From Escherichia coli (GTDB lineage: Bacteria; Pseudomonadota; Gammaproteobacteria; Enterobacterales; Enterobacteriaceae), in the NCBI RefSeq assembly GCF_003991155.1, contig NZ_CP031293.1: a stretch of 64,000 nucleotides of DNA; one strand, given 5' to 3'. Below are positions 1-62,623 of this stretch, in pieces. Numbering within the stretch: position 1 is the stretch's first letter; every line of letters starts with the position of its first letter. The translations under genes were made by a program, and so were the position numbers. The notes beneath the pieces are model-generated. The model saw nothing but the letters and a program-made list of their open reading frames with translations, searched no databases and had not been told where the DNA came from.

Positions 1-1335
1 TTCAACAGATGCATCGGTGATCACCTGCCAGCGCGTTTTATTATCCAGCGTGGCGTCAGGATGCTGGTGCTGCCACTCTTCCAGCCGTTTATGCGCATTC
101 TCGATCATGACGATAGCGGCATCGACCATCGCCCCGACGGCAATCGCAATGCCACCCAACGACATAATATTGGCGTTCAGTCCCTGAAAGTGCATGACAA
201 TAAAAGCAATACACAACCCCAGCGGCAACGAAATAATCGCCACCAGCGCCGAGCGCACATGCCAGAGAAACAGCGCACAGACTACCGCCACCACAATAAA
301 CTCTTCCAGCAACTTGCCACTGAGGTTGTCAATGGCGCGGTCAATGAGCTGGCTGCGATCGTATGTTGTAACTATCTCCACGCCTTCCGGCAGACTGCTT
401 TTCAGCGTTTCCAGTTTGTCCTTCACGGCAGCGATCACTTCACGGGCGTTTTTGCCGGAACGCAGGATCACCACCCCGCCCGCCACTTCGCCTTCGCCGT
501 TCAGTTCGGCAATGCCCCGGCGCATCTCCGGGCCAACCTGGACCTTCGCAACATCACGCAGATAAACGGGCACGCCATTTTCACTGGCTTTTAAAACGAT
601 GTGATTAAAGTCGTCGAGCGTTTGCAGATAGCCGCTGGCGCGCACCATATATTCCGCTTCCGCCAGTTCGATCGACGAACCGCCCGTTTCCTGGTTTGAA
701 GCATCCAGCGCGCTTTTTACTTCGGCGAGACTGATGCCATACTGCGCCAGGCGCTGAGGATCGATAACCACCTGATACTCTTTCACCACACCGCCCACCG
801 ACGCCACTTCCGCAACGTCAGGGATGGTTTTTAGCTCATATTTGAGAAACCAGTCCTGCAATGAGCGTAAATCGGCCAGATCGTGCTTACCGCTGCGATC
901 CACCAGTGCATATTCATAGATCCAGCCAACACCCGTGGCATCTGGCCCCAGCTCGGCGCTGACTCCCGCAGGCAGCTTACCCTGTACCTGGTTGAGGTAC
1001 TCCAGCACCCGCGAGCGCGCCCAGTACGGATCGGTGCCATCTTCGAAAATGACATACACATAAGAGTCGCCAAACTGCGAGAAACCGCGCACAGTCTTCG
1101 CGCCAGGCACCGACAACATGGTGGTGGTTAGCGGATAAGTCACCTGATTTTCAACGATTTGCGGTGCCTGACCGGGATAGCTGGTTTTAATAATCACCTG
1201 TACATCAGAGAGATCCGGCAGTGCATCCACTGGCGTGTTAATGATAGTCCAGGTGCCCCAGATACTCAGAAACAACGCGCCCATCAGCACCAGAAAACGG
1301 TTCGTCACCGAGCGACGAATAATCCATTCAATCAT
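1..1335 (-). CDS. cusA: CusA RND Cu(I)/Ag(I) efflux pump, N-terminal 445 codons (continues beyond window start)
   Basis: Reverse translation from the ATG at 1335 reads [24 protein letters not shown]... with no stop before position 1. It starts 11 nt after the cusB stop. cusCFBA synteny. Confidence 0.95.
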
Positions 1336-1346
1336 TGGCTATTCCC

Positions 1347-2570: not shown

Positions 2571-2585
2571 CTCATTAAACCTGGG

Positions 2586-2918
2586 TTACTGGCTGACTTT
2601 AATATCCTGTAATAAAGAAAGGTTGCCCTGCTGGACAAAATTAAACGCCACTTTGTCGCCAGTTTTAATTTCGCTCATTTTCGTCTGCGGGGTGATGGTA
2701 AAGCGCATGGTCATCTCCGGCCAGTTCACGGCAGCAATCGGAGCGTGATGGATGGTGATTTTTTTGCTTTCCAGATCAATACCTTTTACCACGCCAGTGG
2801 CGCTAATAACCTGTGGTTGTGCTTCGCTCATGGTTTCATGATGATGTTCGTTAGCCTGGGCATTAAAGCCAATAACGGTAAACAGACTGAACATTGCGAC
2901 TTGCAGTGCTTTTCTCAT
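2586..2918 (-). CDS. cusF: CusF periplasmic Cu/Ag chaperone
   Basis: ORF trimmed to the internal start MRKALQVAMFSLFTVIGFNAQA (signal peptide), giving 110 aa. Contains the NEHHHETM region. Lies after the cusC stop at 2942. Confidence 0.9.
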   Translation of the reverse strand: MRKALQVAMFSLFTVIGFNAQANEHHHETMSEAQPQVISATGVVKGIDLESKKITIHHAPIAAVNWPEMTMRFTITPQTKMSEIKTGDKVAFNFVQQGNLSLLQDIKVSQ

Positions 2919-2941
2919 ATATTCTCTCCTGGAGTTAAAAA

Positions 2942-4324
2942 TTATTGCTGCCAACCGCCGCCTAAGGCGGCATATAAAGAAATTTCGTTAACCTGACGGG
3001 CATAATTCAGGTCAAGTAAAGTTTGTCGGGTTGCAAATAAAGAACGCTCAGCATCCAGCACTTCCAGATAACTTACCGCGCCGTGCTGATATAATGCCCG
3101 CGCCCGTTGCAAAGTAATTTGCAGCGACGCAAGATAACGCTGCTGGGCGCTGATTTGATCGTTCAGGCTTTGACGTAATGCCAGCGCATCTGCCACTTCT
3201 TTAAAGGCGTTCTGGATTTTCTGTTCATAATTCACCACCGACTGCTGCTGGCGAATTTCGGCGATATCCAGATTGGCCTGGTTGCGTCCGGCATTAAAAA
3301 TGGGGATCTCAATTTTAGGAATAAAATTCCACATCCCGCTGCTGGCGTTAAATAATGACGACAGATCGCTGCTGGCGGTTGATATTTCGCTGGTCAGGCT
3401 GATAGACGGGAAAAATGCCGCACGCGCAGCACCAATATTGGCATTAGCCGCCATTAACGCGTGTTCAGCTTCCATAATATCCGGGCGCTGCAATAAGATT
3501 TGCGACGACAAGCCCGCCGGTAATTTAACGCTTTGCAGGCTGTCGCTGTTTACTGTCTGCGCTTGCGGCAGCTTGCCGTAGCTTCCCAATAACAGTTGCA
3601 ATGCATTATTCGCCTGCGCCAGTTCCCCCTGACGTTTAGCGATGTCGCTGCGGGTACTTTCTATCACCCCGCGAGCCTGTTCCAGCGCCAGAACATTGCT
3701 GCTACCGGTCAACAGTTGTTTTTCGACAAACGCATATGACTGCTGATAATTACGCAGCGTTTCTTCGGCTATTTGCAATTGCGCATACGCCAGTTGCTGA
3801 TTGAAATAGCTTTGTGCGACATTAGAAACTAGCAAAATATGCACCGCGCGCTGAGCTTCCTCAGTGGCTAAATAATTTTGGCGCTCGGCTTCGCTCATGT
3901 TCTTTAAGCGACCGAAAAAATCGAGATCAAAGCTGGCGTTAAGGCCAGTCGAGAACTCCCGCGTCGTGGCTGAATCGCCTTTAAGATTGCCGCTCCAGCT
4001 GCCGCTGCCCTCGCCATTGAGCTGTGGGTAGCGGTCGGCATCGGTCAGACGATATTGCGCCCGCGCTTCCTGCACTTTCAGCGCCGCCATGCGCAAATCC
4101 CGGTTATTCACCAACGCCTCGCTAATCAGCGTCTTCACCCGATTATCAACAAAAAAGGTGCGCCAGCCCGCGTTCTGGTAGTTATCTGCTGCGTTAACCA
4201 GGCCGTTCTGGCTGAGTGAGAACTGCTGCGGCACGGGCATTGCCGGACGCTGATAATCCGGTGCCAGTGAACAACCGGTTAGCGCAAGGGCCACACAAAA
4301 TGGCAGAAGTTTACAAGGAGACAT
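2942..4324 (-). CDS. cusC: CusC outer-membrane factor lipoprotein
   Basis: 460-aa ORF with lipobox LALTGCSL. OMF-type repeats. First gene of cusCFBA. Confidence 0.95.
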   Translation of the reverse strand: MSPCKLLPFCVALALTGCSLAPDYQRPAMPVPQQFSLSQNGLVNAADNYQNAGWRTFFVDNRVKTLISEALVNNRDLRMAALKVQEARAQYRLTDADRYPQLNGEGSGSWSGNLKGDSATTREFSTGLNASFDLDFFGRLKNMSEAERQNYLATEEAQRAVHILLVSNVAQSYFNQQLAYAQLQIAEETLRNYQQSYAFVEKQLLTGSSNVLALEQARGVIESTRSDIAKRQGELAQANNALQLLLGSYGKLPQAQTVNSDSLQSVKLPAGLSSQILLQRPDIMEAEHALMAANANIGAARAAFFPSISLTSEISTASSDLSSLFNASSGMWNFIPKIEIPIFNAGRNQANLDIAEIRQQQSVVNYEQKIQNAFKEVADALALRQSLNDQISAQQRYLASLQITLQRARALYQHGAVSYLEVLDAERSLFATRQTLLDLNYARQVNEISLYAALGGGWQQ

Positions 4325-4393
4325 AGGCTCATAATTTCTGGTGATTTTATGCCGCCAACTTTACTCGCCAGGCTCTGATTTTCCGGTGACAGG

Positions 4394-4415
4394 AAAATGA
4401 CAAAATTGTCATTTT
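4394..4415. promoter_or_regulatory. CusR box in the cusC-cusR divergent intergenic region
   Basis: AAAATGACAA-AA-TTGTCATTTT, with perfect 10-bp inverted arms, lying between the divergent cusC and cusR starts. Confidence 0.8.
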
Positions 4416-4480
4416 GCCAATAAGCGATTGCCATCTGATCCCGCTACTCTAGAATTGCCCGGGCAACATGCGGAGGAAAT

Positions 4481-5164
4481 ATGAAACTGTTGATTGTCGA
4501 AGATGAAAAGAAAACCGGAGAATACTTGACCAAAGGGTTAACCGAAGCCGGTTTTGTGGTCGATTTGGCCGACAACGGGCTGAATGGCTACCATCTGGCG
4601 ATGACCGGTGATTATGATCTGATAATCCTCGATATTATGCTGCCGGACGTGAACGGCTGGGATATCGTGCGCATGTTGCGTTCCGCCAATAAGGGGATGC
4701 CGATTCTGTTGCTTACCGCGCTTGGCACCATTGAACATCGCGTCAAGGGGCTGGAGTTGGGGGCCGATGACTATCTGGTGAAGCCGTTCGCTTTTGCTGA
4801 ACTGCTGGCGCGGGTGCGCACTCTCCTGCGGCGCGGGGCGGCGGTGATTATCGAAAGTCAGTTTCAGGTTGCCGATCTGATGGTCGATCTCGTCAGCCGC
4901 AAAGTCACCCGCAGCGGCACGCGCATCACTCTGACCAGTAAAGAATTTACTCTGCTGGAGTTTTTCCTTCGCCATCAGGGCGAAGTGCTGCCCCGCTCGC
5001 TTATCGCCTCGCAGGTATGGGACATGAATTTCGACAGCGACACTAACGCCATTGATGTGGCGGTGAAGCGGCTACGCGGCAAAATCGACAACGACTTTGA
5101 GCCGAAGCTGATTCAAACCGTGCGCGGCGTGGGTTACATGCTTGAGGTACCGGATGGCCAGTAA
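4481..5164 (+). CDS. cusR: CusR OmpR-family response regulator
   Basis: 227 aa. Receiver domain (MKLLIVEDE...[15 protein letters not shown]) plus a winged-helix C-terminus. Confidence 0.95.
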
Positions 5165-6596
5165 GCCATTTCAGCGCCCGTTTTCGCTGGCAACCCGCCT
5201 GACCTTTTTTATCAGCCTGGCCACCATCGCGGCGTTTTTCGCCTTTGCATGGATCATGATCCACTCAGTAAAAGTGCATTTTGCCGAGCAGGATATTAAT
5301 GATTTAAAAGAGATTAGCGCCACCCTTGAACGGGTACTAAATCACCCTGACGAAACGCAAGCCCGACGCTTAATGACGCTGGAAGATATTGTCAGTGGTT
5401 ATTCCAACGTGTTGATTTCCCTGGCAGATAGCCACGGCAAAACGGTGTATCACTCCCCCGGTGCGCCTGATATCCGCGAGTTTGCACGTGATGCCATACC
5501 CGATAAAGACGCTCGGAGCGGCGAGGTGTATCTCCTTTCCGGCCCGACAATGATGATGCCAGGCCACGGTCACGGGCATATGGAACACAGCAACTGGCGG
5601 ATGATTAACTTGCCGGTTGGCCCGTTGGTGGACGGCAAACCGATTTATACGCTCTACATCGCGCTTTCGATCGATTTTCATCTTCATTACATAAATGATT
5701 TGATGAATAAACTTATTATGACCGCATCGATCATCAGCATCCTGATCGTCTTTATCGTGCTGCTGGCGGTACATAAAGGCCACGCGCCAATTCGCAGCGT
5801 CAGCCGTCAAATCCAGAACATTACCTCGAAAGATCTCGACGTTCGCCTCGATCCACAGACCGTGCCCATTGAACTCGAACAACTGGTGCTGTCGTTCAAC
5901 CATATGATCGAGCGTATCGAGGATGTCTTTACCCGCCAGTCCAATTTCTCAGCGGATATCGCTCACGAAATTCGCACGCCGATTACGAATCTCATAACGC
6001 AAACGGAAATCGCCCTCAGCCAGTCGCGCAGTCAGAAGGAGCTGGAAGATGTGCTCTACTCTAATCTCGAAGAGCTGACTCGAATGGCGAAAATGGTCAG
6101 CGATATGTTGTTTCTCGCCCAGGCCGATAACAACCAGTTAATCCCCGAAAAGAAAATGCTCAACCTGGCGGATGAAGTCGGCAAAGTGTTCGATTTTTTC
6201 GAGGCGTTAGCGGAAGATCGCGGCGTGGAGTTGCGGTTTGTTGGTGACGAGTGTCAGGTTGCGGGCGATCCGCTGATGTTGCGTCGGGCGTTAAGCAACC
6301 TGCTTTCGAACGCCCTGCGTTATACGCCACCCGGAGAGGCAATTGTTGTGCGCTGCCAGACGGTCGATCACCAGGTGCAAGTTTCCGTCGAAAACCCCGG
6401 TACGCCCATTGCGCCCGAACACTTACCGCGATTGTTTGACCGTTTCTACCGCGTTGATCCTTCCCGCCAGCGAAAAGGCGAAGGTAGCGGCATTGGGCTG
6501 GCGATAGTGAAATCAATTGTTGTCGCGCATAAAGGCACGGTTGCAGTAACTTCAGATGCGCGCGGAACAAGGTTTGTTATCATATTACCCGCTTAA
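5154..6596 (+). CDS. cusS: CusS copper/silver sensor histidine kinase
   Basis: Start trimmed to [10 protein letters not shown], giving 480 aa. Two TM segments, H-box [14 protein letters not shown] and HATPase motifs. Overlaps the cusR end by 11 nt. Confidence 0.9.
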
Positions 6597-6745
6597 TCCT
6601 TCAGCAAACGGCAACTTTTATAACCAGTGTAAAAATAACGTGCCGCAATAATCCTACCTATTAATGATAAAAAGCTGTCACAATTCATAAAAAACTTTAA
6701 TATACGCCACCCTAAACATAACCAGCGTTAATGTAAGGTTTTTGT

Positions 6746-8983
6746 GTGGACTGGCTTCTTGATGTTTTTGCTACCTGGCTCTACGGCTTAAAAGTAATCG
6801 CGATAACGTTAGCGGTCATCATGTTCATCAGCGGGCTGGACGATTTTTTTATTGATGTCGTCTACTGGGTACGCCGCATTAAACGCAAGTTGAGTGTTTA
6901 TCGCCGCTACCCGCGAATGAGTTACCGCGAACTGTATAAACCAGATGAAAAACCGTTAGCGATTATGGTTCCGGCGTGGAATGAAACGGGCGTCATCGGC
7001 AATATGGCCGAGCTGGCGGCGACCACGCTCGACTACGAAAACTATCATATCTTTGTTGGCACCTACCCCAACGACCCCGATACTCAGCGTGATGTTGACG
7101 AAGTGTGCGCTCGCTTCCCGAACGTGCATAAGGTAGTCTGCGCGCGTCCTGGCCCCACCAGCAAAGCCGACTGTCTGAACAACGTGCTGGACGCCATCAC
7201 CCAATTTGAACGTAGCGCCAATTTCGCTTTTGCTGGTTTTATTCTGCATGACGCCGAAGATGTGATTTCACCGATGGAATTGCGTCTGTTCAACTATCTG
7301 GTCGAGCGTAAAGATCTGATTCAGATCCCAGTGTATCCGTTCGAACGCGAATGGACGCACTTCACCAGCATGACTTACATTGATGAGTTTTCAGAACTGC
7401 ATGGCAAAGATGTTCCGGTGCGTGAAGCCCTCGCCGGACAAGTGCCCAGCGCAGGCGTCGGCACCTGTTTCAGCCGCCGCGCCGTGACCGCTCTGTTAGC
7501 TGACGGTGACGGTATTGCTTTCGACGTGCAGAGTCTGACTGAAGATTACGATATTGGCTTCCGCCTGAAAGAAAAAGGTATGACGGAAATTTTTGTCCGT
7601 TTTCCGGTGGTGGACGAAGCCAAAGAACGCGAGCAGCGTAAATTTTTACAGCACGCGCGGACGTCAAACATGATCTGCGTGCGCGAATATTTCCCCGATA
7701 CCTTTTCGACGGCGGTTCGACAAAAATCTCGCTGGATCATCGGCATTGTTTTCCAGGGCTTTAAAACCCATAAATGGACCTCCAGCCTGACGCTGAACTA
7801 CTTTCTCTGGCGCGACCGCAAAGGGGCAATCAGTAACTTTGTCAGCTTCCTCGCGATGCTGGTGATGATCCAGCTTTTGCTGTTACTGGCGTATGAAAGT
7901 TTGTGGCCCGATGCCTGGCATTTCCTTTCTATTTTCAGCGGCAGCGCATGGTTAATGACCCTGCTGTGGCTAAACTTTGGTTTGATGGTTAACCGCATCG
8001 TGCAGCGGGTGATTTTTGTCACTGGCTACTACGGTCTGACGCAGGGGCTGCTATCTGTCCTGCGTCTTTTCTGGGGCAACCTGATTAACTTCATGGCCAA
8101 CTGGCGCGCGTTAAAACAGGTACTTCAACACGGCGATCCACGTCGCGTCGCGTGGGATAAAACAACGCATGACTTCCCCAGCGTGACTGGCGATACCCGC
8201 TCGTTGCGCCCGTTAGGCCAAATTCTGCTGGAAAATCAGGTCATCACTGAAGAACAACTCGATACAGCACTGCGTAATCGCGTCGAAGGTCTACGCCTGG
8301 GCGGTTCAATGCTGATGCAGGGGCTGATTAGCGCCGAACAGCTGGCACAGGCGCTGGCAGAGCAAAACGGCGTGGCGTGGGAGTCGATCGACGCCTGGCA
8401 GATCCCTTCATCACTGATTGCCGAAATGCCGGCTTCCGTGGCGCTGCATTATGCAGTACTGCCGCTGCGTCTGGAAAATGATGAGTTAATTGTCGGCAGT
8501 GAAGATGGTATTGACCCGGTTTCGCTGGCAGCCCTGACGCGTAAAGTCGGACGCAAAGTGCGTTACGTCATTGTTCTGCGGGGACAAATTGTCACCGGAT
8601 TACGCCACTGGTATGCACGCCGACGCGGTCACGATCCGCGGGCAATGTTGTACAATGCAGTTCAGCATCAGTGGCTCACGGAACAGCAGGCCGGTGAAAT
8701 CTGGCGGCAATATGTGCCGCATCAGTTCCTGTTCGCCGAAATACTGACCACGCTCGGTCATATTAATCGTTCAGCAATTAACGTGTTGTTATTGCGCCAT
8801 GAACGCAGTTCTCTGCCGCTCGGCAAGTTTTTGGTCACCGAAGGCGTTATCAGCCAGGAAACGTTGGATCGCGTCCTGACAATTCAACGCGAATTACAAG
8901 TTTCGATGCAATCACTATTACTCAAAGCAGGTTTAAACACAGAAAAGGTTGCGCAACTGGAGTCCGAAAATGAAGGAGAATAA
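6746..8983 (+). CDS. nfrB: NfrB inner-membrane family-2 glycosyltransferase (phage N4 adsorption protein B)
   Basis: 745 aa with a GTG start. N-terminal TM, GT2 core (HDAEDV) and multiple TM segments. nfrB-nfrA-ybcH synteny. Confidence 0.9.
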   Translation: MDWLLDVFATWLYGLKVIAITLAVIMFISGLDDFFIDVVYWVRRIKRKLSVYRRYPRMSYRELYKPDEKPLAIMVPAWNETGVIGNMAELAATTLDYENYHIFVGTYPNDPDTQRDVDEVCARFPNVHKVVCARPGPTSKADCLNNVLDAITQFERSANFAFAGFILHDAEDVISPMELRLFNYLVERKDLIQIPVYPFEREWTHFTSMTYIDEFSELHGKDVPVREALAGQVPSAGVGTCFSRRAVTALLADGDGIAFDVQSLTEDYDIGFRLKEKGMTEIFVRFPVVDEAKEREQRKFLQHARTSNMICVREYFPDTFSTAVRQKSRWIIGIVFQGFKTHKWTSSLTLNYFLWRDRKGAISNFVSFLAMLVMIQLLLLLAYESLWPDAWHFLSIFSGSAWLMTLLWLNFGLMVNRIVQRVIFVTGYYGLTQGLLSVLRLFWGNLINFMANWRALKQVLQHGDPRRVAWDKTTHDFPSVTGDTRSLRPLGQILLENQVITEEQLDTALRNRVEGLRLGGSMLMQGLISAEQLAQALAEQNGVAWESIDAWQIPSSLIAEMPASVALHYAVLPLRLENDELIVGSEDGIDPVSLAALTRKVGRKVRYVIVLRGQIVTGLRHWYARRRGHDPRAMLYNAVQHQWLTEQQAGEIWRQYVPHQFLFAEILTTLGHINRSAINVLLLRHERSSLPLGKFLVTEGVISQETLDRVLTIQRELQVSMQSLLLKAGLNTEKVAQLESENEGE

Positions 8984-11942
8984 CCTTAATCGCGTCATCG
9001 GATGGTCTGGTTTACTGCTGACGTCTTTATTGAGTACCAGCGCACTCGCAGACAATATCGGCACCAGCGCAGAAGAGCTGGGGCTGAGCGATTATCGCCA
9101 TTTCGTTATTTATCCCCGTCTCGACAAGGCGCTGAAGGCACAGAAAAATAACGACGAAGCAACCGCCATCCGCGAATTTGAATATATACACCAACAGGTG
9201 CCGGATAATATTCCACTAACTTTATACCTTGCGGAAGCCTATCGCCATTTTGGTCATGATGACCGGGCGCGGCTGTTGCTTGAGGATCAACTGAAACGTC
9301 ACCCAGGAGATGCCCGACTTGAGCGCAGTCTGGCGGCTATTCCAGTTGAAGTGAAAAGCGTTACGACTGTTGAAGAACTGCTGGCCCAGCAAAAAGCGTG
9401 CGATGCTGCGCCGACCCTGCGTTGTCGCAGTGAAGTTGGGCAGAATGCCCTGCGGCTGGCACAATTACCTGTCGCCAGAGCGCAACTGAACGATGCGACG
9501 TTTGCTGCATCGCCGGAAGGAAAAACGCTGCGAACCGATCTGCTGCAACGGGCAATCTACCTGAAACAATGGTCCCAGGCAGATACGCTATACAATGAAG
9601 CACGCCAGCAGAACACATTAAGCGCGGCAGAACGCCGCCAGTGGTTTGATGTGCTTCTTGCCGGGCAGCTGGACGATCGGATCCTGGCGCTGCAATCACA
9701 GGGGATCTTCACCGATCCTCAGTCATATATTACTTACGCGACCGCGCTGGCTTATCGTGGCGAAAAAGCACGCCTCCAGCGTTATCTCATTGAAAATAAG
9801 CCGCTGTTTACCACGGACGCACAAGAGAAAAGTTGGCTCTATCTGATATCTAAATACAGCGCCAACCCCGTTCAGGCGTTGGCGAATTATACGGTACAGT
9901 TTGCCGATAACCGCCAGTATGTTGTTGGCGCGACGCTACCGGTGCTGTTAAAAGAAGGTCAGTACGACGCAGCGCAAAAACTGCTCGCCACCCTCCCCGC
10001 CAATGAAATGCTTGAGGAGCGTTATACCGTTAGCGTAGCGACCCATAACAAGGCTGAAGCTCTGCGTCTGGCACGATTGCTGTATCAGCAAGAACCGGCA
10101 AATCTTACCCGCCTGGATCAACTGACCTGGCAACTGATGCAGAACGAGCAGTCACGCGAAGCTGCCGATTTATTGCTGCAACGCTATCCTTTCCAGGGCG
10201 ATGCGCGTGTCAGCCAGACGTTAATGGCGCGACTGGCGTCTCTGCTGGAAAGTCATCCTTACCTGGCAACGCCGGCGAAGGTGGCGATTTTATCGAAACC
10301 CTTACCGCTGGCGGAGCAACGTCAGTGGCAAAGTCAGTTGCCGGGTATTGCAGATAATTGCCCGGCTATAGTTCGCTTGCTGGGCGATATGTCGCCTTCC
10401 TACGATGCCGCCGCCTGGAACCGTCTGGCAAAGTGTTATCGGGACACGCTACCCGGTGTGGCGTTGTATGCATGGCTTCAGGCCGAACAACGACAACCGA
10501 ACGCCTGGCAACATCGTGCGGTAGCCTATCAGGCGTATCAGGTTGAGGACTACGCCACCGCACTGGCGGCCTGGCAGAAAATCAGTCTTCACGACATGAG
10601 CAATGAGGATCTGCTTGCTGCTGCCAATACCGCCCAGGCGGCAGGAAATGGTGCGGCTCGCGATCGCTGGCTTCAGCAGGCAGAACAACGTGGGCTGGGA
10701 AACAATGCCCTCTACTGGTGGCTGCATGCGCAACGTTACATTCCTGGTCAGCCGGAACTCGCACTGAACGATCTCACGCGCTCAATCAATATTGCGCCTT
10801 CTGCCAACGCTTACGTTGCGCGGGCGACAATTTATCGCCAACGTCATAATGTCCCGGCGGCGGTGAGTGATTTGCGCGCCGCGCTGGAACTGGAACCGAA
10901 TAATAGCAACACCCAGGCAGCGCTCGGTTACGCCTTGTGGGATAGCGGTGATATCGCACAGTCGCGGGAAATGCTCGAACAGGCGCATAAAGGGCTACCG
11001 GACGATCCGGCACTTATCCGACAACTGGCCTACGTGAACCAGCGTCTGGATGACATGCCTGCGACGCAGCACTACGCCCGGCTGGTGATTGATGACATTG
11101 ATAATCAGGCGCTGATAACCCCACTGACCCCAGAGCAAAATCAGCAACGCTTCAATTTCCGCCGTCTGCATGAGGAGGTCGGTCGCCGCTGGACGTTCAG
11201 TTTCGATTCTTCTATCGGCTTGCGTTCCGGCGCAATGAGTACCGCTAACAATAATGTCGGCGGCGCAGCGCCAGGGAAAAGCTATCGTAGCTACGGGCAA
11301 CTGGAAGCCGAGTACCGCATCGGACGCAATATGCTGCTGGAAGGCGACCTGCTCTCGGTTTACAGCCGTGTATTTGCCGATACCGGTGAAAACGGGGTGA
11401 TGATGCCGGTGAAAAATCCGATGTCCGGCACCGGTCTGCGCTGGAAGCCGCTGCGCGATCAGATCTTTTTCCTCGCCGTCGAACAGCAGTTGCCGCTGAA
11501 CGGCCAAAATGGCGCATCCGATACCATGCTGCGCGCCAGCGCCTCATTCTTTAATGGCGGCAAATACAGCGACGAATGGCACCCGAACGGTTCAGGCTGG
11601 TTTGCCCAAAACCTGTACCTCGATGCGGCGCAATATGTCCGCCAGGATATTCAGGCGTGGACGGCAGATTATCGCGTCAGCTGGCATCAGAAGGTGGCTA
11701 ACGGACAGACTATTGAGCCTTACGCTCACGTTCAGGACAACGGCTATCGTGATAAAGGCACTCAGGGCGCGCAGCTTGGCGGAGTCGGGGTCCGCTGGAA
11801 TATCTGGACCGGCGAGACGCACTACGACGCCTGGCCGCACAAAGTCAGTCTCGGCGTCGAGTATCAACATACCTTTAAGGCGATTAATCAACGTAACGGA
11901 GAGCGCAACAACGCGTTTCTCACCATTGGAGTGCACTGGTAA
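8970..11942 (+). CDS. nfrA: NfrA outer-membrane protein (phage N4 receptor, TPR plus barrel)
   Basis: Start trimmed to MKENNLNRVIGWSGLLLTSLLSTSALA (signal peptide), giving 990 aa. The C-terminus ends in the beta-barrel-like FLTIGVHW. Confidence 0.9.
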   Translation: MKENNLNRVIGWSGLLLTSLLSTSALADNIGTSAEELGLSDYRHFVIYPRLDKALKAQKNNDEATAIREFEYIHQQVPDNIPLTLYLAEAYRHFGHDDRARLLLEDQLKRHPGDARLERSLAAIPVEVKSVTTVEELLAQQKACDAAPTLRCRSEVGQNALRLAQLPVARAQLNDATFAASPEGKTLRTDLLQRAIYLKQWSQADTLYNEARQQNTLSAAERRQWFDVLLAGQLDDRILALQSQGIFTDPQSYITYATALAYRGEKARLQRYLIENKPLFTTDAQEKSWLYLISKYSANPVQALANYTVQFADNRQYVVGATLPVLLKEGQYDAAQKLLATLPANEMLEERYTVSVATHNKAEALRLARLLYQQEPANLTRLDQLTWQLMQNEQSREAADLLLQRYPFQGDARVSQTLMARLASLLESHPYLATPAKVAILSKPLPLAEQRQWQSQLPGIADNCPAIVRLLGDMSPSYDAAAWNRLAKCYRDTLPGVALYAWLQAEQRQPNAWQHRAVAYQAYQVEDYATALAAWQKISLHDMSNEDLLAAANTAQAAGNGAARDRWLQQAEQRGLGNNALYWWLHAQRYIPGQPELALNDLTRSINIAPSANAYVARATIYRQRHNVPAAVSDLRAALELEPNNSNTQAALGYALWDSGDIAQSREMLEQAHKGLPDDPALIRQLAYVNQRLDDMPATQHYARLVIDDIDNQALITPLTPEQNQQRFNFRRLHEEVGRRWTFSFDSSIGLRSGAMSTANNNVGGAAPGKSYRSYGQLEAEYRIGRNMLLEGDLLSVYSRVFADTGENGVMMPVKNPMSGTGLRWKPLRDQIFFLAVEQQLPLNGQNGASDTMLRASASFFNGGKYSDEWHPNGSGWFAQNLYLDAAQYVRQDIQAWTADYRVSWHQKVANGQTIEPYAHVQDNGYRDKGTQGAQLGGVGVRWNIWTGETHYDAWPHKVSLGVEYQHTFKAINQRNGERNNAFLTIGVHW

Positions 11943-43688: not shown

Positions 43689-44015
43689 TTACTCCTTAGA
43701 GCCACCAAACTTGTTACCGATTACTCTCATTGCAGCCCCACGAATAGCATCAACACCGATCAGCCCCACCCCACCACCAATGGCAACAGATAGTGATTTA
43801 GGCCATCCGACATACTCAAGAGCGGATGCAAAAGTCAGCGTCAGAGCGCCACAGAGTAGAATTTCGAGTGTTTTTCGCTTCCAGCCGCCACCACCGCCAA
43901 AATAGGCAATACGTAAACCAGCCATAACAATCGACATAATCACTGCGCCCAGCGGTGTGTCTCCACGCCACCAGCTCTGGACCAACTCCAGCCATGTATT
44001 TGGGTTATGAGGCAT
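43689..44015 (-). CDS. Holin, non-lambda type (about three TM segments, HP1/holin-3-like)
   Basis: 108 aa directly upstream of R. Hydrophobic segments GAVIMSIVMAGLRIAYF, ILLCGALTLTFASAL and AIGGGVGLIGV. No similarity to lambda S. Confidence 0.75.
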   Translation of the reverse strand: MPHNPNTWLELVQSWWRGDTPLGAVIMSIVMAGLRIAYFGGGGGWKRKTLEILLCGALTLTFASALEYVGWPKSLSVAIGGGVGLIGVDAIRGAAMRVIGNKFGGSKE

Positions 44016-44306: not shown

Positions 44307-45481
44307 ATGGATATAACTTGTTTAGAATGTGGCAATGTTCTTGACGACCCAACTGTAGCTTGCGATAAATGCGGTGCCACGCCTCATGTTGTAGTGCTGG
44401 GCAAACAATCGTACTTTCCTATTGGTGCTGTAACAGCAAATCTTGAAAAAAATGATTCAAGAGCATTTGATTATCGATTAGGTGAAGTTTGGGATCTAAA
44501 AAATGAAGTCACATCTGAATTCATAACCAGAATTGAGAAAAAATTTAGCCGAAAAAACAAATTTCATAACTTCCTAGACTCAGATCACAACCCTTCATCC
44601 ATTCCTACGATCCTAAAAAAATACATTAATAAGAATAATGAATTCATTGATTTATCTAGAGCTATAATAGAGAAGCTTAAACATAATGCTAATAACGAAT
44701 CGAGAGTTGCCCAACTTCAGGGGGGGAGCGTTGTTTTCATCCACTATAAGTCTACCGAACCAGAGGATTTGGGGAAACTTCTAATCGTAATGGTTGATAA
44801 ACAAAGCGCCTATGACTTTGATTCGGATAAGTTGACCCCAACAAGATTAAATCCAATTAATACCGATGCCTTACGGCAGGCTGCGATGTTCGATTTAACT
44901 TTATTCGAAGCCAGTTATCCAGAAAACAAGGGTGACTCATATGTACATTTCTTGCAAGGTAAATCTAAAAGCGATTTTTTCAAAGACTCATTAGGTTGCC
45001 GACATGATTCGGACAATAAAAGAAGCATTCAGCAATTATTCAGTGCTATAGATATTTTTGCTAGTAAAAACTCACTCGGTCGTGTACTGCGTGATACTAT
45101 TGACAATGAAGTTAAATCCTTACTGGAAAAAAATCAAAAGATAAACACGGAAATAAGTCCGTTAAGATAGAGGATATTTCAAAAATAATTGACTCATGCC
45201 TGACTGATTCACACAAATGTAAGGGAACGTTTGTCGATTTTGTTAATCTTAATGGTTTCCAGATTGACCCTCAATTTGAACCAACTCCTAAAGCAGCTGA
45301 AAGCGCGCTTACAATTGAAGTGGCAGATAACGACAATAATTTTAAGTTGAAAATAATGCGTGGAGCTATTGGAGACGAAAAGTCAAATAAGCCTGTAATT
45401 CTCACTGACAACAAATGCGAAATTGTGATAAAATTGAGTCAGGCAAATTATGATGAACTCAAAAGATATAGAGACAGCTAA
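44307..45481 (+). pseudogene. Zn-ribbon plus YejK/NdpA-like (NA37) nucleoid-associated-type protein, split by a frameshift at an A7 tract
   Basis: The first frame (44307-45170) has CLECG...CDKCG, GGSVVFIHYK, LLIVMVDK and HFLQGKSKSDFFKDSLGC. The -1 frame is open from 45116 to 45478 and carries the family-like C-terminus (...CEIVIKLSQANYDEL). Confidence 0.6.
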
Positions 45482-45483
45482 TA

Positions 45484-46698
45484 ATGACAATTGCTGATGA
45501 CTTATCAAGATTAGCGCAGATTATTAACGGAGCCTCAAGCAGAGTTGAGGGCTACTACACTGTCATAAGTCTTGAAGAAAGCATTGTTATTGTAAATAGT
45601 TCTGAAATAATTAGACTGTTACAATCTATAGGTTATAAAAAGGCAACAACCTGCATCGAAAATAATGAAATTTGGCTAGATCGCCAAGCTTCATCTTGGG
45701 ATGATGCTATAATTTATGAGAATGTTGAGTCTTTTTGGTCTAGAGTAAACACCCAAAACGCTCTTCCGAAAAATTATATCATCGGAACGCCGTTAATACT
45801 CCCTACTTCTAAGAATGAAAGCATCGAAAAAATCCATATTTTCTTTATGTGGAAAGATATCCTTTCATTAATTGCTGATCATCATAACAGTGACTGCTCT
45901 GTCTTATTTTTCACCAATGAAGACAAAAGTTATACAGTCGAACTCACGCATTTTTTACAATATAGCGAGATTAATCGCTTATCGAACTCGTCTCTTAAAT
46001 ATGAAATTATAAAGGAGCTTCTCGACACAATAAAAATCAATGATTTACACAAAAGCGAGCGCAAGCTCGTTATACGCTCAGCCATAAACGAAGTATTTAA
46101 AGCAAATGGTACGTTCAATTTCTTTGACTTGCTTAACTCTACTGAACTCGTCAGGAAAAAATATGATGAACTATATGAGATTTACACAAAGAGGTTTTCT
46201 GTAAATAAAATTCTTAACGAACTCGATGAGAAAAATCTTGAGTTCACGAGTAAAATTAACGAATTCATATCATCTAATCAGACAAAAGCATTGACTATTC
46301 CCGGTGCATTAATAGCAGCTGGTGGCTTAGTGAAGGCTAATGAAACAACCGAAGCAATATTGATTATCGCAGGACTTTGGATGATAAAAAAAGTCAATTA
46401 CATTTCTATTGAGATATTCAATGAAACATTCGACAACTTACGTTCTCGAGTGGAGTCCGCTTTCGATAAGTATTTAAAGTTTGAAGAAAATAAAGAAATC
46501 AAAGATAATGCAGATAGTATTAAGAGTAGCATTACAGGTTTGATTGATAAAGCTAAAAAAAGGATGAGAACTGTTAAATATCTCGCATCAGCCATGTTTT
46601 ATGGAGGCCTTATTTACGTTGGATATAAACAGTTCCCAGTCTTTTTTGAAAAATCGGCAGTAAATCTATTTTATTTTTTATGCCATACTATAAGCTAA
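45484..46698 (+). CDS. 404-aa protein of unknown function with C-terminal transmembrane helices
   Basis: The ATG is 2 nt after the upstream stop. Hydrophobic ALTIPGALIAAGGLV, AILIIAGLWMI and YLASAMFYGGLIYVGY. Very AT-rich. No recognised domain. Confidence 0.6.
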   Translation: MTIADDLSRLAQIINGASSRVEGYYTVISLEESIVIVNSSEIIRLLQSIGYKKATTCIENNEIWLDRQASSWDDAIIYENVESFWSRVNTQNALPKNYIIGTPLILPTSKNESIEKIHIFFMWKDILSLIADHHNSDCSVLFFTNEDKSYTVELTHFLQYSEINRLSNSSLKYEIIKELLDTIKINDLHKSERKLVIRSAINEVFKANGTFNFFDLLNSTELVRKKYDELYEIYTKRFSVNKILNELDEKNLEFTSKINEFISSNQTKALTIPGALIAAGGLVKANETTEAILIIAGLWMIKKVNYISIEIFNETFDNLRSRVESAFDKYLKFEENKEIKDNADSIKSSITGLIDKAKKRMRTVKYLASAMFYGGLIYVGYKQFPVFFEKSAVNLFYFLCHTIS

Positions 46699-47034
46699 CA
46701 TTGCTAAACAGCCGTCAACAAACCCCATTGCAGTTTGCAGTTCCTTCCTAATTGTGCCATCAGAGCATTTTCTCTTCTTCGCAATAGTGCGTAATGAGAT
46801 ACCGATAACAAAGTGGGCGATGATGAGCTCATATTCCTCTGGTTTATACCTTCTCAACCGAGCCACACAACTGTCTATCATGATGCCTTCGTCATCATCA
46901 CACTGAATCCGTGACTTTTTGCCATGAGGTAAAAGTCCCTTGAAACCAGCCGCTATCGGCTGCCAGTCCACTCCGCTATTGTCTGAAGCAGCCCAAGCTC
47001 CCCAACGATCCATTACTTCATACATATCACGCAT
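46678..47034 (-). CDS. quuD: Late antiterminator Q (DLP12 QuuD / phage 82-21 type)
   Basis: Trimmed to MRDMYEVMDRWGAWAASDNSGVDWQPIAAGFKGLL, giving 118 aa. Gene order rusA-ylcG-Q, as in DLP12. Confidence 0.8.
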   Translation of the reverse strand: MRDMYEVMDRWGAWAASDNSGVDWQPIAAGFKGLLPHGKKSRIQCDDDEGIMIDSCVARLRRYKPEEYELIIAHFVIGISLRTIAKKRKCSDGTIRKELQTAMGFVDGCLAMLAYSMA

Positions 47035-47118
47035 CAACTTTCTCCACAAAATCAGGCCAGAACGCCAATTACAAGCAAAAATCAACAAAACAGTATTAGT
47101 TGATTGTTATCTCTGACT

Positions 47119-47905: not shown

Positions 47906-48068
47906 GATTCCTCCTTGCTGCCAGTCGCAACCATTTTTTATCAACCAGGCTAGCGGTATATCCGAGCAGTGTTGGTATTTCGGATGGCTTCGGCTCAGGC
48001 TTACGCTTACGACGATTTGATACTCTGTAGATGTGTCCGTTCATGACACGAATAAGCGGTGTAGCCAT
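47898..48068 (-). CDS. ninE: NinE
   Basis: 56 aa, read by hand: [56 protein letters not shown]. Overlaps the ybcN stop and the ybcO start. Confidence 0.85.
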   Translation of the reverse strand: MATPLIRVMNGHIYRVSNRRKRKPEPKPSEIPTLLGYTASLVDKKWLRLAARRNHG

Positions 48069-48523
48069 TACGCCTCCTGCTTGTCACGGAGCAGCTGGAA
48101 CTCGCAGCTCTGCGGAATAGTCAGGTGGCAGCCAATATTCACCGCCCAGGCTTCAACCTTACACAGGAAGACATACATCTCTCCGGTATCAAGATCGGAG
48201 GTATGGCGTAACGACTGGATAGTGGTGATATCACCGGTTACGACATCAACCAGGTCTTTGGTTTCATAACCGAGATATGTGTGTTTGAGAGCATCTTTTA
48301 CCCAAGCTGGAGTGGCGAACGTTTTACCCCTGTTGATGAGGTATTCACTGATTTCGCTGTACCACATGTGGCTGAGTGCATTCTGGGAAAGACTGCGTTT
48401 CTCACGCCACGGTTTAAGCACCATGCGAAAGCATTTGCCCTCCTCCAGATAAGGCTGGATCTGCCGACCGATAGCGGTGAAGTTACCGCGATGTAATTTG
48501 ATGCCATCTTGTGGGAGATTCAC
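48068..48523 (-). CDS. ybcN: YbcN (NinB-family DNA-binding recombination protein)
   Basis: 151 aa with a GTG start, [50 protein letters not shown].... Confidence 0.9.
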
Positions 48524-48621
48524 GCTTCACCTCCGCAGAGGTCAAACGCTGGATGCAAAAAATCGCAGGTGCATCTCTGCATCTGTGAAGGGAGAAGAGA
48601 GTTTGGATTGTATGTGCGCAT
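48520..48621 (-). CDS. ylcH: YlcH-like 33-aa peptide
   Basis: Read by hand: [33 protein letters not shown]. Its stop overlaps the ybcN GTG (GTGA). Confidence 0.6.
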
Positions 48622-48719
48622 AAACGTCCCCGTTTAGCGCAGAAGTCACCGGAGTTGTTCAGGCTCCGATGACATGATTATGGCAAAATGATTATGTAAA
48701 ATCAAAAGCCAAAAAACAA

Positions 48720-49649
48720 TTATGGTTTATTTTCTAGCTCTGATTTTTTGAAAGCTTCTATCAGACGATTAGCATCTTCTGTACCACCAGGAAGCACGTT
48801 TGATTTTTTAAGAATATACGGTGGGAACTTTGTGGTTAAATATTCATGCTTAAACCATCTACGAAACTCTGACAATGCAGAATCAGGATAGGCATTAATG
48901 ATCTGAGGATTGGAACTTGCCTGAAGAAAATCTTCAGGGTAATAATGCTCACAGTCTACTCTTTCTCCAAATTCTGTTGCTAACCCCTTTGCTTTCCAGT
49001 GACGCGCCCAGCAAGAACCAACACTGCCATCAGGTACGGTATGCTGATTAATCGCTAATCCAGCATTGATGAGATCTACCATCATACCTGCAATTTCATT
49101 AAATATAATGAAATACCCATCAGGTATGGTTCCCTTATCTTTTAATAAAGATACTCTGTCATGGTAATGCCTCCACGGGTCCTCCGGTTGATATTTTAGC
49201 GCCTCGTATATAAATGTCTTGAGGCCTTTTTTAGCAAGCTCTCTGTAAGATCTAATTGCAGTCTCACTTTCTGCTTGTTTTGCTTCAAAGGCATAGTATT
49301 CAAGTATAGCCATGCATACAACATCTGGATAAGCATGGTACTCAACACCATTTCGAATTATTGGTATATAAAGTTTTTCATCTGTAAAACCTTCATTAAG
49401 AAGATATGTACCAATAAAAGTCATTCTTCCTTTTTTGAAAATACCGTTCTCAACAGATTGAGCCCACTCATCGGTAATTTCCTTGATTCGCAAACGCTGA
49501 ACACCACAAACATTTGCCAACCCATTCTGAGTAAGGTACGGAATTCCGTTATCGAGTACCCCCATTTCTATACCGTTAATGACAGCCTCTTGCTTAACAT
49601 CTAAGTCTAAAGGTATGGATCTGAGGGAGGTAGTTCTCTGTTGTGCCAT
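48720..49649 (-). CDS. 309-aa protein of unknown function (weak by-eye resemblance of the N-terminal half to P63C-type phage proteins)
   Basis: The ATG at 49649 has an AGGA SD. The track start at 49664 is TTG. AT-rich. Contains motifs HAYPDVVCMAILEYYAFEAK and KTFIYEALKYQ. Confidence 0.5.
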   Translation of the reverse strand: MAQQRTTSLRSIPLDLDVKQEAVINGIEMGVLDNGIPYLTQNGLANVCGVQRLRIKEITDEWAQSVENGIFKKGRMTFIGTYLLNEGFTDEKLYIPIIRNGVEYHAYPDVVCMAILEYYAFEAKQAESETAIRSYRELAKKGLKTFIYEALKYQPEDPWRHYHDRVSLLKDKGTIPDGYFIIFNEIAGMMVDLINAGLAINQHTVPDGSVGSCWARHWKAKGLATEFGERVDCEHYYPEDFLQASSNPQIINAYPDSALSEFRRWFKHEYLTTKFPPYILKKSNVLPGGTEDANRLIEAFKKSELENKP

Positions 49650-49853
49650 TTTTGATCCTATCAATTTGAATTCATTGAAAAAATTAGGTGTTCCCTATGC
49701 ATTAGAACACTCATCATAGTAACCCCACTCGTTTGTGAAAAAAACTAATTTCACAATCAGTTAACTCTCAAAATAACTGATATTCATACTCTCGCTATCC
49801 CATATATAGACATCCTTGTTTTAATACAACACTCATGGCTGGCGGCTATACTC

Positions 49854-50171
49854 CTAACAGATTTGACGCAAATACGGCAATACTCGACTCCACTTATCAT
49901 CCTGCCACGGCTGAAGTTTTACATGTGCCGTTTCTCGGACGAGGATTGCTCGCGCTCTGTTGAGTATCTGGGGATATTCTTGCTCGATGGAAGTGAAGTG
50001 ACCAGCTTCACCATGCTCCGCATCCTGAAGAAGATGAGTAACGTTCTGGTAGGCAATTAACATCACATTCCCTGCTCGCCATAACCAGGCGAGTGTGCAA
50101 AGTTCGTTATCAGTGAATTGTTTTGTGATTGGGGATTGTTGAACTGCTAGAACGAGAACGCCAGCATCCAT
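49854..50171 (-). CDS. 105-aa hypothetical protein
   Basis: Intact ORF between the ybcK-like gene and the 309-aa gene. No recognised motif. Confidence 0.4.
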   Translation of the reverse strand: MDAGVLVLAVQQSPITKQFTDNELCTLAWLWRAGNVMLIAYQNVTHLLQDAEHGEAGHFTSIEQEYPQILNRARAILVRETAHVKLQPWQDDKWSRVLPYLRQIC

Positions 50172-50282: not shown

Positions 50283-51809
50283 TCAAAAATAAACCTCACC
50301 ATCAACCATATATTTGAGAGTACTTATCGCCTGCTGGGCGGATATTGTTTTCATTAAAGGATAGTGTTTAAAAACAATGCCATTCATAAAATAGATATCA
50401 CAGGTTTTATTATCTGTATTGATTATGATTTTTTCGAATGTTTTATAGGCAAGTGTACGACATAGCTCTCGCCCATTTTTACTGGTTAAGTCAATAGCAT
50501 GAAAATCACCAAGTGAGCTCACCGCTTTACTCTTCAAAGTTTTTAATGATACAGAAGCCCTTCGTAATTCCTTATCTAATACTCTGATTTTTTCTGCTAT
50601 AGCGGTAACTTCAGGCGCAACAGATAATGCAGCAATTAAATTATTAATTTTCATCTGGAGCTCAATAATTTTCAACTCTAAAGTTTCATTAGCATCTTTC
50701 TTGTTTTCAACTGGTTGGATTTTACTACAATTAAAAAGCAACTCATTAATGATATTATAATCAACCAAATCTCTCTTTATTGATGGCCTGTCACATCGAT
50801 GCAGTCTTCTCATCGGACAAACATAATAGCCATGCAAACTTCCAGATACCGCATGAACAATCATGGTATTACCACAAGCCTCGCACTTCATAACTGTTCG
50901 AAGTAGATTTATCAACATAGGATTTTTGCTACTATTGCTAATACCAAAAGGTGCCAACCGAATTTCCTGCACAGCGTAAAACAAATCATCTGATATGACT
51001 CTGGGATAATAGCCAGCGATTTCACTTATTCCTTTACCTCTTGCACGATATGAAGGTACGCATATACCTATCAGAGCTTTATTCGCTAATAATTTTTCAA
51101 TTACAGAAGGTCCCCATGCACTTTCTTTTCCTGAGAAATTCTTTACAGCATGATCATTTAAATACTTGGCTATTGCATTCAATGAGCGCCTTTCCATCCT
51201 GAGTTTAAAAATTAGCTCAATAGTTTTCACCCTGTCGGGGTCTGGAACAAAAGCCGTTCTTTTGTCATCTAAGGAGAGCCATCTCGGACAAGACGCCGTC
51301 ATAATCGTGCCTGACTCCAGTGCATCCTGCCGTTTTTTCTTCCATGATAATTTAACCCGACTTGACTTTATCTCGCTTTCTTCATTTGCCCTTTGTGCTA
51401 TAAGTATGGCTTTTATTAATGAATATGGATCATTCAAAGAGTCAATATTATAGACTGTATTATCGCAAAGAGTTATAACATCAATACCGTGATTCAAAAT
51501 CAATTTCAGACGCTCAATCGCTTCACCGACTTTTTCTCTTGAAAGTCTGTCCAGACTTTCAACTAACAATGTAGTTCCTGGCAATATATAACCATGCTCT
51601 ATAGCATCTAAAAATTCCGAAAAAGCTCCTGATTGTGCATGCTTTCCTTTGAATGCACTTAATCCTAAATCTTCATATGTTATGGTATCAAGATAATAAT
51701 CACTATTTACCTTTAACCATTCAGCAATAAGTCTTCTCTGTCGGTTTAATGAGTCGCCAGACATCTGACCTGGTGATGAAAATCGCATATATGCTATGGC
51801 TTTTTTCAT
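50283..51809 (-). CDS. ybcK: Large serine recombinase (YbcK-like)
   Basis: 508 aa with resolvase N-domain AIAYMRFSSPGQ...LLVESLDRLSR. Recombinase domain, Zn-ribbon CEACGN...YYVCP...HRCD, and a coiled coil. Confidence 0.85.
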   Translation of the reverse strand: MKKAIAYMRFSSPGQMSGDSLNRQRRLIAEWLKVNSDYYLDTITYEDLGLSAFKGKHAQSGAFSEFLDAIEHGYILPGTTLLVESLDRLSREKVGEAIERLKLILNHGIDVITLCDNTVYNIDSLNDPYSLIKAILIAQRANEESEIKSSRVKLSWKKKRQDALESGTIMTASCPRWLSLDDKRTAFVPDPDRVKTIELIFKLRMERRSLNAIAKYLNDHAVKNFSGKESAWGPSVIEKLLANKALIGICVPSYRARGKGISEIAGYYPRVISDDLFYAVQEIRLAPFGISNSSKNPMLINLLRTVMKCEACGNTMIVHAVSGSLHGYYVCPMRRLHRCDRPSIKRDLVDYNIINELLFNCSKIQPVENKKDANETLELKIIELQMKINNLIAALSVAPEVTAIAEKIRVLDKELRRASVSLKTLKSKAVSSLGDFHAIDLTSKNGRELCRTLAYKTFEKIIINTDNKTCDIYFMNGIVFKHYPLMKTISAQQAISTLKYMVDGEVYF

Positions 51810-54478: not shown

Positions 54479-55018
54479 TCATATTGCCCCCAGCATGGTG
54501 GTGACCATCGCCATCAGTGGACCAGCCAGATCTGGGTCCACACGAAACATCGACACAATACCTTCACTAATTTCCTTCAGTTTCTGGTGGCGTGGTGCGT
54601 TGAGAATGACAGCCTGTTTTGCCTCACTGAGTTCCTTTTCCATTTCAGCCAACCTAGCCATAAAGCTATCCTGCTCAACCAGGTAACCGCGATATTCCAG
54701 CGGTAGTACCGCCAGAATTGCCGGGGTCAGTTCACGCACGTTATTTCGGTATTTTTCAGAATCGAATTTGTTATCGAGGAAGCGGAACAGCTTCTGGCGT
54801 GCACGGCTGACATCATCAGGGAAATCGATGGTGCCGCCGCCCAGCTCCCGATACTCATTCACAATGAGTGCGGCAACAACATCCTGATTATCTGCAGCCG
54901 ACCAGGCGCGAACGGCATCACGGATTTTTTCGTGGCCTGGCGCCTGTTTTGTTTGAGAACGATTTATCACCGCAGTCGGGGTAAATCCGCTAGTCTGTTG
55001 GTATGTAATTGGTTGCAT
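54479..55018 (-). CDS. YdaT-family protein in the cII position
   Basis: 179 aa. Alignable by eye to Rac YdaT (EY..GGG, L.PAILAVLP.E.R). Follows the YdaS-like cro. Confidence 0.6.
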   Translation of the reverse strand: MQPITYQQTSGFTPTAVINRSQTKQAPGHEKIRDAVRAWSAADNQDVVAALIVNEYRELGGGTIDFPDDVSRARQKLFRFLDNKFDSEKYRNNVRELTPAILAVLPLEYRGYLVEQDSFMARLAEMEKELSEAKQAVILNAPRHQKLKEISEGIVSMFRVDPDLAGPLMAMVTTMLGAI

Positions 55019-62544: not shown

Positions 62545-62591
62545 AATGGCGCGCCCTGCAGGATTCGAACCTGCGGCCCACGACTTAGAAG
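62545..62591. repeat. att repeat (int-proximal copy) overlapping the 3' part of argU
   Basis: Identical 47-mer to 13821-13867. Confidence 0.9.
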
Positions 62592-62623
62592 GTCGTTGCT
62601 CTATCCAACTGAGCTAAGGGCGC
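62547..62623 (-). tRNA. argU: tRNA-Arg (anticodon UCU)
   Basis: The reverse complement reads GCGCCCTTAGCTCAGTTGGATAGAGCAACGACCTTCTAAGTCGTGGGCCGCAGGTTCGAATCCTGCAGGGCGCGCCA, 77 nt, with CT-TCT-AA in the anticodon loop. Confidence 0.97.

Follow-up and report, generated by a model that had tools for sequence, protein, structure and literature searches.

What is encoded between the ybcK-like recombinase gene and ylcH in a prophage of Escherichia coli, where the same interval of K-12 DLP12 holds ybcL-ybcM, and does the DNA found there form one unit? The question is raised by a stretch of 64,000 nucleotides of contig NZ_CP031293.1 (assembly GCF_003991155.1), called the window here and analyzed as a whole. 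A preliminary description, made from the letters alone, had placed two minus-strand ORFs of 309 and 105 aa in this interval. Both are present where it had put them, and the flanking genes that it had named, the ybcK-like recombinase on one side and ylcH/ybcN on the other, were borne out by Pfam and annotation. The features of the locus are the following.

48068-48523: ybcN/NinB, followed downstream by ninE, ybcO, rusA, ylcG and Q.
48520-48621, minus strand: ylcH, 33 aa, first gene of the conserved nin flank (translation; annotation of the identical locus).
48720-49649, minus strand: coding sequence of the 309-aa protein (bstA); ATG start, preceded at 8 nt by an SD-like AGGA.
49664, minus strand: upstream TTG, an alternative bstA start giving 314 aa (ORF translation).
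49854-50171, minus strand: 105-aa ORF, C-terminal P22AR_C half of an antirepressor-family gene (Pfam and alignment).
50283-51809, minus strand: ybcK-like large serine recombinase, the upstream flank (Pfam Resolvase, Recombinase and Zn_ribbon_recom; RefSeq annotation of the identical locus).
62547-62623: tRNA-Arg(tct), the prophage end (DLP12/argU site).

The 309-aa protein is identified by profile matches as a full-length BstA, a known prophage abortive-infection defence family. PHROG 6287 ('BstA abortive infection system, replication inhibitor') matches its residues 5-308 over positions 2-303 of 304 (E=1.8e-136), and the PADLOC BstA model PDLC02356 matches it with E=3.6e-121. In the precomputed Pfam assignments BstA_C (PF26567) is present on the 100%-identical protein cluster P0001 and on all full-length homologues. 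An older Pfam copy without the BstA_C model gave no significant match to the protein, only crAss_CARG1 at E=0.16, and no match was found in NCBIfam. In RefSeq the recent name is 'BstA C-terminal domain-containing protein', while older records and most copies read 'hypothetical'. A faint likeness of the N-terminal half to P63C-type phage proteins had been suspected; it is not supported, Pfam giving no P63C match at E<=1. Nor do the earlier statements hold that the rest of this protein and the whole 105-aa protein are unrecognizable and the function unknown: BstA has been characterized experimentally since 2021 (PMC8585504), PADLOC and PHROGs detect the 309-aa protein, and P22_AR_C matches the 105-aa protein with E=7.7e-14.

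All 42 invariant columns in an alignment of 117 homologues are present in the window BstA. A confident AF2 model has an N-terminal fold that matches DNA-binding domains, and the N-terminal domain is predicted to be a KilA-N/APSES-like DNA-binding domain. Structure comparison found no structural relative that would explain the C-terminal effector domain. Identity is 40% to BstA-BTP1 (over 99% of the length) and 38% to the BstA-Ec type, so the window BstA belongs to a separate lineage. Its nearest relatives are a protein on a metagenomic contig (86% identity) and proteins of Lonsdalea, Xenorhabdus and Rahnella (74-76%), followed by Morganella (69%) and Pasteurella (65%). The window gene is not the BstA-Ec allele of Owen et al., since the BstA-Ec cloning primer is absent from the window.

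BstA is expressed from the prophage in lysogens, colocalizes with infecting phage DNA, stops its replication and aborts infection (PMC8585504). The BstA proteins of BTP1, Klebsiella and E. coli, only about 40% identical to one another, all defend and are interchangeable for defence (PMC8585504). The resident prophage escapes through aba, a DNA element of 63 bp (-29 to +34 of bstA-BTP1); the DNA itself is active, when present in many copies, and only against the cognate BstA. In BTP1 the element ends in CCCGCC direct repeats, 56 nt apart across the ATG, which are essential (PMC8585504). The element has been mapped experimentally in BTP1 only, and repeats have been reported for BTP1 only (PMC8585504).

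Among the characterized systems, BstA-BTP1 (st313-td of Salmonella prophage BTP1; PMC8585504) is like the window protein in full-length family membership and two-domain layout, and both are prophage-borne single genes with a direct repeat about 56-57 nt apart across the start codon. They differ in that the BTP1 gene lies directly downstream of cI whereas the window gene lies in the nin region between ybcK and ylcH, and in that the repeat is CCCGCC in BTP1 but an imperfect AGRGAAC-ACCT in the window. The BstA-Ec type (E. coli NCTC10963 / 2012C-4431) likewise comes from an E. coli prophage; defence by it and a cognate aba of its own have been demonstrated (PMC8585504), and its locus also carries a 57-nt repeat, AGCAGATCCCT / AGCGAATCCCT; it differs in its lower identity, its length of 298-301 aa and its place downstream of cI in a P22-like immunity region. 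The clade relatives from Lonsdalea, Xenorhabdus, Rahnella, Morganella and Pasteurella (65-76% identity) belong to the same BstA subclade and have an AGGGAAC-ACCCT-type repeat at 57 nt, but most follow an S24 repressor gene or have other surroundings.

Positions 15287-64000 of the window are collinear, at 99.994% identity, with a stretch of E. coli PK12 whose annotated genes make up a complete lambdoid prophage (tail, head, terminase, lysis, Q, nin, O/P, cro/cI, red, int). In the window the prophage that encodes bstA runs from the tail fibres to intD and adjoins tRNA-Arg; ren, emrE, ylcJ and the ybcK-like recombinase lie upstream of the two ORFs in the direction of transcription. This lambdoid prophage, about 45 kb in length, is apparently complete and has tRNA-Arg (the DLP12/argU site) as its integration site. 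Hochhauser et al. (2023) reported E. coli bstA in lambda-like prophages at tRNA-Arg, hotspot #32 (PMC10121019). That hotspot is the integration site of the window prophage, a match at the level of the site.

The two ORFs had been taken to form one replacement island. Compared with K-12, in which DLP12 does have the same flanks with ybcL-ybcM as cargo, as had been noted, homology stops at 48707 and restarts at 50244, with both ORFs inside the differing segment. In blastn comparisons with five other lambdoid prophages of the same backbone, the conserved flank ends at 48705-48724 and restarts at 49856-49866, the second breakpoint falling at the stop codon of the 105-aa ORF; the ylcH flank is common to all compared prophages. 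With breakpoints at 48707 and 49855 the exchanged unit is bstA alone, without the 105-aa ORF, and an island of both ORFs is ruled out because the breakpoints enclose only bstA. As delimited in this way, 48707-49855 is a single-gene 'moron' cassette carrying bstA. Its parts are listed below.

48707-49855: exchanged cargo cassette, 1,149 bp, GC 0.38 (blastn breakpoints).
49650-49853, minus strand: AT-rich upstream region, GC 0.34, inside the cassette; presumed promoter and SD.
49628-49698, minus strand: candidate aba, an imperfect direct repeat straddling the bstA start codon; function presumed from the repeat.
48698-48747, minus strand: AU-rich hairpin, ~20 bp, that covers the bstA stop codon and might serve as a terminator (RNA fold).

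The cassette contains bstA, 204 nt of AT-rich upstream DNA and the 3' hairpin, has a GC content of 0.38 against 0.51 in the nin genes, and recurs at 99% identity or more in 109 complete E. coli genomes. AT-rich regions of 100-200 nt had been described upstream of both ORFs, and they measure 204 nt (GC 0.34) and 111 nt (GC 0.36). The claim that both genes are AT-rich stands for bstA (GC 0.39) and not for the 105-aa ORF, whose GC of 0.475 is near that of the nin genes. The upstream region has one weak sigma-70-like match, TTTTCA-17-TATGAT at 49741-49713; in a consensus scan the number of matches was not above that in shuffles, so a promoter of bstA's own is presumed only. The RNA fold of 48640-48760 (minus strand) has an MFE of -33.4 kcal/mol (z = -4.9 vs shuffles), and a scan for G+C-rich terminators did not detect the 3' hairpin and gave no excess over shuffles.

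The 105-aa ORF has clear antirepressor homology, a result that the preliminary description had named as grounds for refuting its reading. P22_AR_C (PF10548) matches its residues 15-85 over positions 3-73 of 73, and the ORF aligns to residues ~100-202 of 202-aa proteins found at two other loci (L008 and L009). These proteins occupy the same place in prophages without ybcK and carry Bro-N (E=4.4e-10) as well as P22_AR_C; the N-terminal Bro-N/ANT domain is absent from the 105-aa ORF by Pfam and by alignment to them. The ORF begins with a new MDAG, and as only its first few residues are novel, the gene was cut at the junction with the ybcK module. The P22 Ant / Bro-N + P22AR_C antirepressor family shares the P22_AR_C domain with the ORF, which lacks Bro-N. 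From these alignments the ORF is best described as what is left, after 5' truncation, of a 202-aa Bro-N + P22AR_C antirepressor-family gene; it belongs to the flank, which is conserved more widely than the cassette, and lies outside the BstA system.

Two other roles for the 105-aa protein were weighed against that of a remnant. It might work with BstA, as a regulator or protein antidote, the two having been acquired together as one island. The ORFs are adjacent and in the same orientation, and K-12 DLP12 has neither, but the 105-aa gene occurs in 668 genomes against ~108 with bstA and adjoins at least four other cargoes in the inspected loci, the homology breakpoint lies exactly at its stop codon, and no P22AR_C neighbour was found beside the BstA relatives inspected in other genera. 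With a single protein sufficing for BstA action in experiments (PMC8585504), and with the ORF being half of a longer gene under relaxed constraint, such a two-gene system is extremely improbable; it was rejected on distribution and breakpoints. The ORF could instead be a functional small protein in its own right, for example a dominant-negative or decoy Bro-N/P22AR_C antirepressor. Its open frame with the new ATG is kept in hundreds of genomes, PHROG 7640, a family of ~107-aa proteins, matches it end to end (E=1.7e-69), and dN/dS is below 1 in most pairs. Against this stand the missing Bro-N domain, an internal stop in one truncated copy and the rise of dN/dS in the shared core from 0.04 between two full-length copies to 0.30-1.09 among truncated copies, values that rest on small substitution counts and make the test weak either way. 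An independent function of this kind is unlikely, and the pattern is consistent with a remnant that evolves under relaxed constraint, in line with decay.

For bstA itself, the alternative turns on its position. Owen et al. stress the link of bstA to the repressor promoter (PMC8585504), and in relatives at 69-74% identity the gene directly follows that for an S24 cI repressor, which points to the window bstA as the same gene family moved to another slot. In the window the gene lies between ybcK and ylcH in the nin region and not directly downstream of the repressor, so the repressor promoter is not usable; two other small hypothetical genes occupy the place behind cI in the PK12 prophage (99.99% identical). 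The nin-region slot adjoining ybcK was found in none of the closest clade relatives compared. On these grounds bstA could be a passenger without a defence role in the lysogen, silent in lysogeny and transcribed from pR only in lytic growth, where it might serve in competition between phages upon induction, or play some other part, e.g. in virulence phenotypes such as those once reported for st313-td. Its non-canonical position, the lack of a convincing promoter in the consensus scan, the stressed repressor-promoter link and the existence of truncated E. coli copies (cluster P0039 of 187 aa, and match H108 at 67% coverage) would all fit. But the window ORF is intact, at least 99% identical in 109 genomes and has kept all family-invariant residues, and the cassette brings its own 204 nt of upstream DNA and 3' hairpin, as a moron would. 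Nor is the position without parallel: the place downstream of the repressor was reported for 'many', not all, BstA homologues, 21% are not adjacent to prophage repressors (PMC8585504), and some other relatives compared here are also located away from cI. A silent passenger is therefore quite unlikely, and the window bstA is presumably expressed in the lysogen.

The locus is thus very probably explained by a bstA moron in the nin region of a lambdoid prophage, encoding a BstA-type Abi with escape through aba, and by an antirepressor remnant that is uninvolved. By homology to BstA-BTP1, BstA-Ec and BstA-Kp, the window allele, 38-40% identical to the tested proteins, would be expected to have an Abi phenotype and to act as follows. 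BstA would be made in the lysogen and, when a foreign phage infects, would go to the replicating phage DNA by means of its KilA-N-like N-terminal DNA-binding domain. Phage DNA replication would be blocked, and the infected cell would die without release of progeny (abortive infection). On induction of the resident prophage, aba, which would overlap the bstA start, would rise in copy number with the replicating phage genome and at high copy would switch BstA off, letting the prophage escape its own defence. The 105-aa ORF, as a truncated antirepressor-family remnant at the ybcK junction, would have no role in the BstA system.

The candidate aba of the window allele is placed at 49698-49628 and is marked by AGGGAAC-ACCT / AGAGAACTACCT about 57 nt apart. 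Copy 1 is ATAGGGAACACCT at 49698-49686 and copy 2 is ACAGAGAACTACCT at 49641-49628; at a spacing of 57 nt, 8 of 12 positions agree, and the ACCT part realigns at 58 nt (a 1-nt offset). Throughout the window clade a AGGGAACACCCT-type motif precedes bstA and recurs as AGAGATCACCCT within the first codons, always at a spacing of 57 nt. Relative to the ATG the pair slides, standing at -29/+28 in three loci and at about -48/+9 in four, the window included. No copies of the motif beyond chance were found elsewhere in the window.

The spacing was surveyed across 64 BstA loci, which are not phylogenetically independent (58 from a scan of species-representative genomes, together with the window, BTP1, the Ec type and three relatives), by taking, for each locus, the 12-nt direct repeat that scored best in the 200 nt preceding the conserved MGVL motif. 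This top repeat was spaced 56/57 nt in 19.7 loci (weighted), against a mean of 1.6 and a maximum of 3.1 in shuffles and 0.9-7.8 loci in control regions, an enrichment of ~12-fold over shuffles and ~2.5-fold over the worst control. In that control, a coding region, 57 nt is likewise the peak (7.8 of 64), probably through codon periodicity and shared ancestry. In single loci, the window included, the repeat is not significant (shuffle p 0.3-1.0), and what counts is only that one spacing recurs from locus to locus. The repeat sequences differ by lineage (e.g. CACCCGGCACCC, CAGGTCGCCCCC, TTGGTCACCAAC and GGGCAACACCCA), which is what cognate aba specificity would require, and the pattern parallels the CCCGCC pair of BTP1 at 56 nt. 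It is conceivable, at somewhat less than even chances, that aba is a predictable structure throughout the family, consisting of two lineage-specific direct repeats of ~6-12 nt placed 56-57 bp (~5.4 helical turns) apart, one copy upstream of bstA and one within its first ~40 nt, and that the repeats are the 'address' read by the BstA DNA-binding domain. If so, the cognate specificity of each BstA could be read from sequence. The repeat of the window, a candidate aba, is degenerate, with one half-site offset by 1 nt; given this and the nin position, its self-immunity or regulation may depart from the canonical arrangement.

The preliminary description had also called the ybcK-ylcH interval a variable cargo slot, of a type that often carries accessory or defence functions. 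At least six different occupants are found between the P22AR_C gene (or ybcK) and ylcH. They are listed with the number of genomes, among 5,426 complete E. coli, that contain at least 80% of each cargo sequence, positions having been checked in the example loci only.

ybcL-ybcM (example K-12): 3,216 genomes.
HEPN protein and 133-aa ORF (example O157:H7): 190 genomes.
169-aa ORF (examples 90-9281 and CFSAN061770): 180 genomes.
bstA (example the window): about 103-108 genomes.
118-aa ORF (example ECONIH1): 96 genomes.
260-aa ORF (example FORC_082): 80 genomes.

The neighbouring emrE-ybcK position is filled in strain CFSAN061770 by PD-Lambda-1, a known defence system. With PADLOC the other cargoes of the slot matched no known defence system, the HEPN protein giving a weak match only (PDC-M28A), and none was matched by the two AT-rich genes at 44.3-46.7 kb of the window. 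Lambda RexAB, PD-Lambda-1 and other lambdoid defence morons are, like the window bstA, prophage-encoded defence genes in exchangeable slots, but the proteins and mechanisms of RexAB and PD-Lambda-1 are unrelated to BstA. With at least six occupants between the same flanks, a cargo that profile matches assign to the BstA defence family and PD-Lambda-1 in the adjacent position, the earlier reading of a variable slot with defence functions was right in substance.

The window bstA belongs to a known, catalogued defence family, included in PADLOC and in DefenseFinder-based surveys, and the 105-aa ORF is a gene fragment; the family being known already, novelty is low. Beyond the literature, the findings are the nin-region position and, as a modest by-product, the family-wide pattern of 56/57-nt repeats. 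For annotation, a protein labelled 'hypothetical' in most RefSeq copies gains a known defence function, and the ybcK-ylcH interval of DLP12-type prophages emerges as an exchange point for small defence-like cargo. About 2% of complete E. coli genomes carry the cassette, and predictions of their phage sensitivity benefit from this; if the 56/57-nt repeat marks aba, aba elements and their specificity would be predictable across the BstA family.

Direct repeats spaced 56 or 57 nt apart are enriched throughout the BstA family, occurring in 19.7 of 64 BstA loci (weighted count) vs 1.6 in shuffles. The 64 loci comprise the compared loci L002, L003, L010, L011, L013 and L017-L076 and the window itself. 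One copy of the pair lies in the first codons of bstA and the other upstream of the gene. The repeat sequences themselves are lineage-specific. The 56/57-nt pair looks like a general architecture of aba, the DNA element over the bstA start; in the original paper such an architecture was described for BTP1 only (PMC8585504).

In the prophage of E. coli CFSAN061770 (L008), which is related to that of the window, a 500-aa DUF4041/T5orf172 protein (4915-6417) stands in place of emrE-ylcJ-ybcK. It matches PADLOC PD-Lambda-1 (E=1.9e-198), and the position beside the bstA slot is therefore a defence slot too. In L008 and in a second prophage, L009, the ylcH-region sequence is duplicated upstream of the full-length 202-aa Bro-N/P22AR_C gene. 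The second copies, about 100-140 bp long and 89-91% identical, are equivalent to window 48538-48681:

L008 4503-4606, second ylcH-region copy
L009 4511-4648, second ylcH-region copy

The antirepressor-like gene and the cargo therefore form a module between direct repeats of a linker, and these repeats may be what recombination acts on when modules are exchanged.

At 44307-46698, on the plus strand of the window, lies a second cargo that is likewise AT-rich (GC about 0.33-0.38). It is bordered by two genes:

43689-44015, minus strand, holin
46678-47088, minus strand, Q

One product of this cargo, 287 aa long, is an NA37/NdpA-like nucleoid-associated protein (PF04245, E=1.1e-21); the cargo also includes a small ORF and a protein of 404 aa without a match in Pfam or PADLOC. 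K-12 carries nmpC at this site and other strains an ompC or lipocalin gene, and the Q-holin interval looks like a further exchangeable slot. The window prophage also encodes a 179-aa YdaT toxin-domain protein (54479-55018, minus strand) in a cII-like position, between replication gene O and the cro-like regulator.

Shortened forms of the window's bstA allele are present in some E. coli genomes. One protein cluster (P0039, 54 member sequences) represents a truncated product of 187 aa, and the copy in E. coli STEC307 (H108) spans only 67% of the bstA cassette; bstA is undergoing loss in part of the E. coli population. A relative of BstA was found beside a putAbiC gene in a Pasteurella canis prophage (L080, 2891-3865). 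Another (L081, 4001-4933) belongs to a non-lambdoid element that also carries DNA polymerase A and SNF2 genes. The BstA family moves among quite different mobile-element slots.
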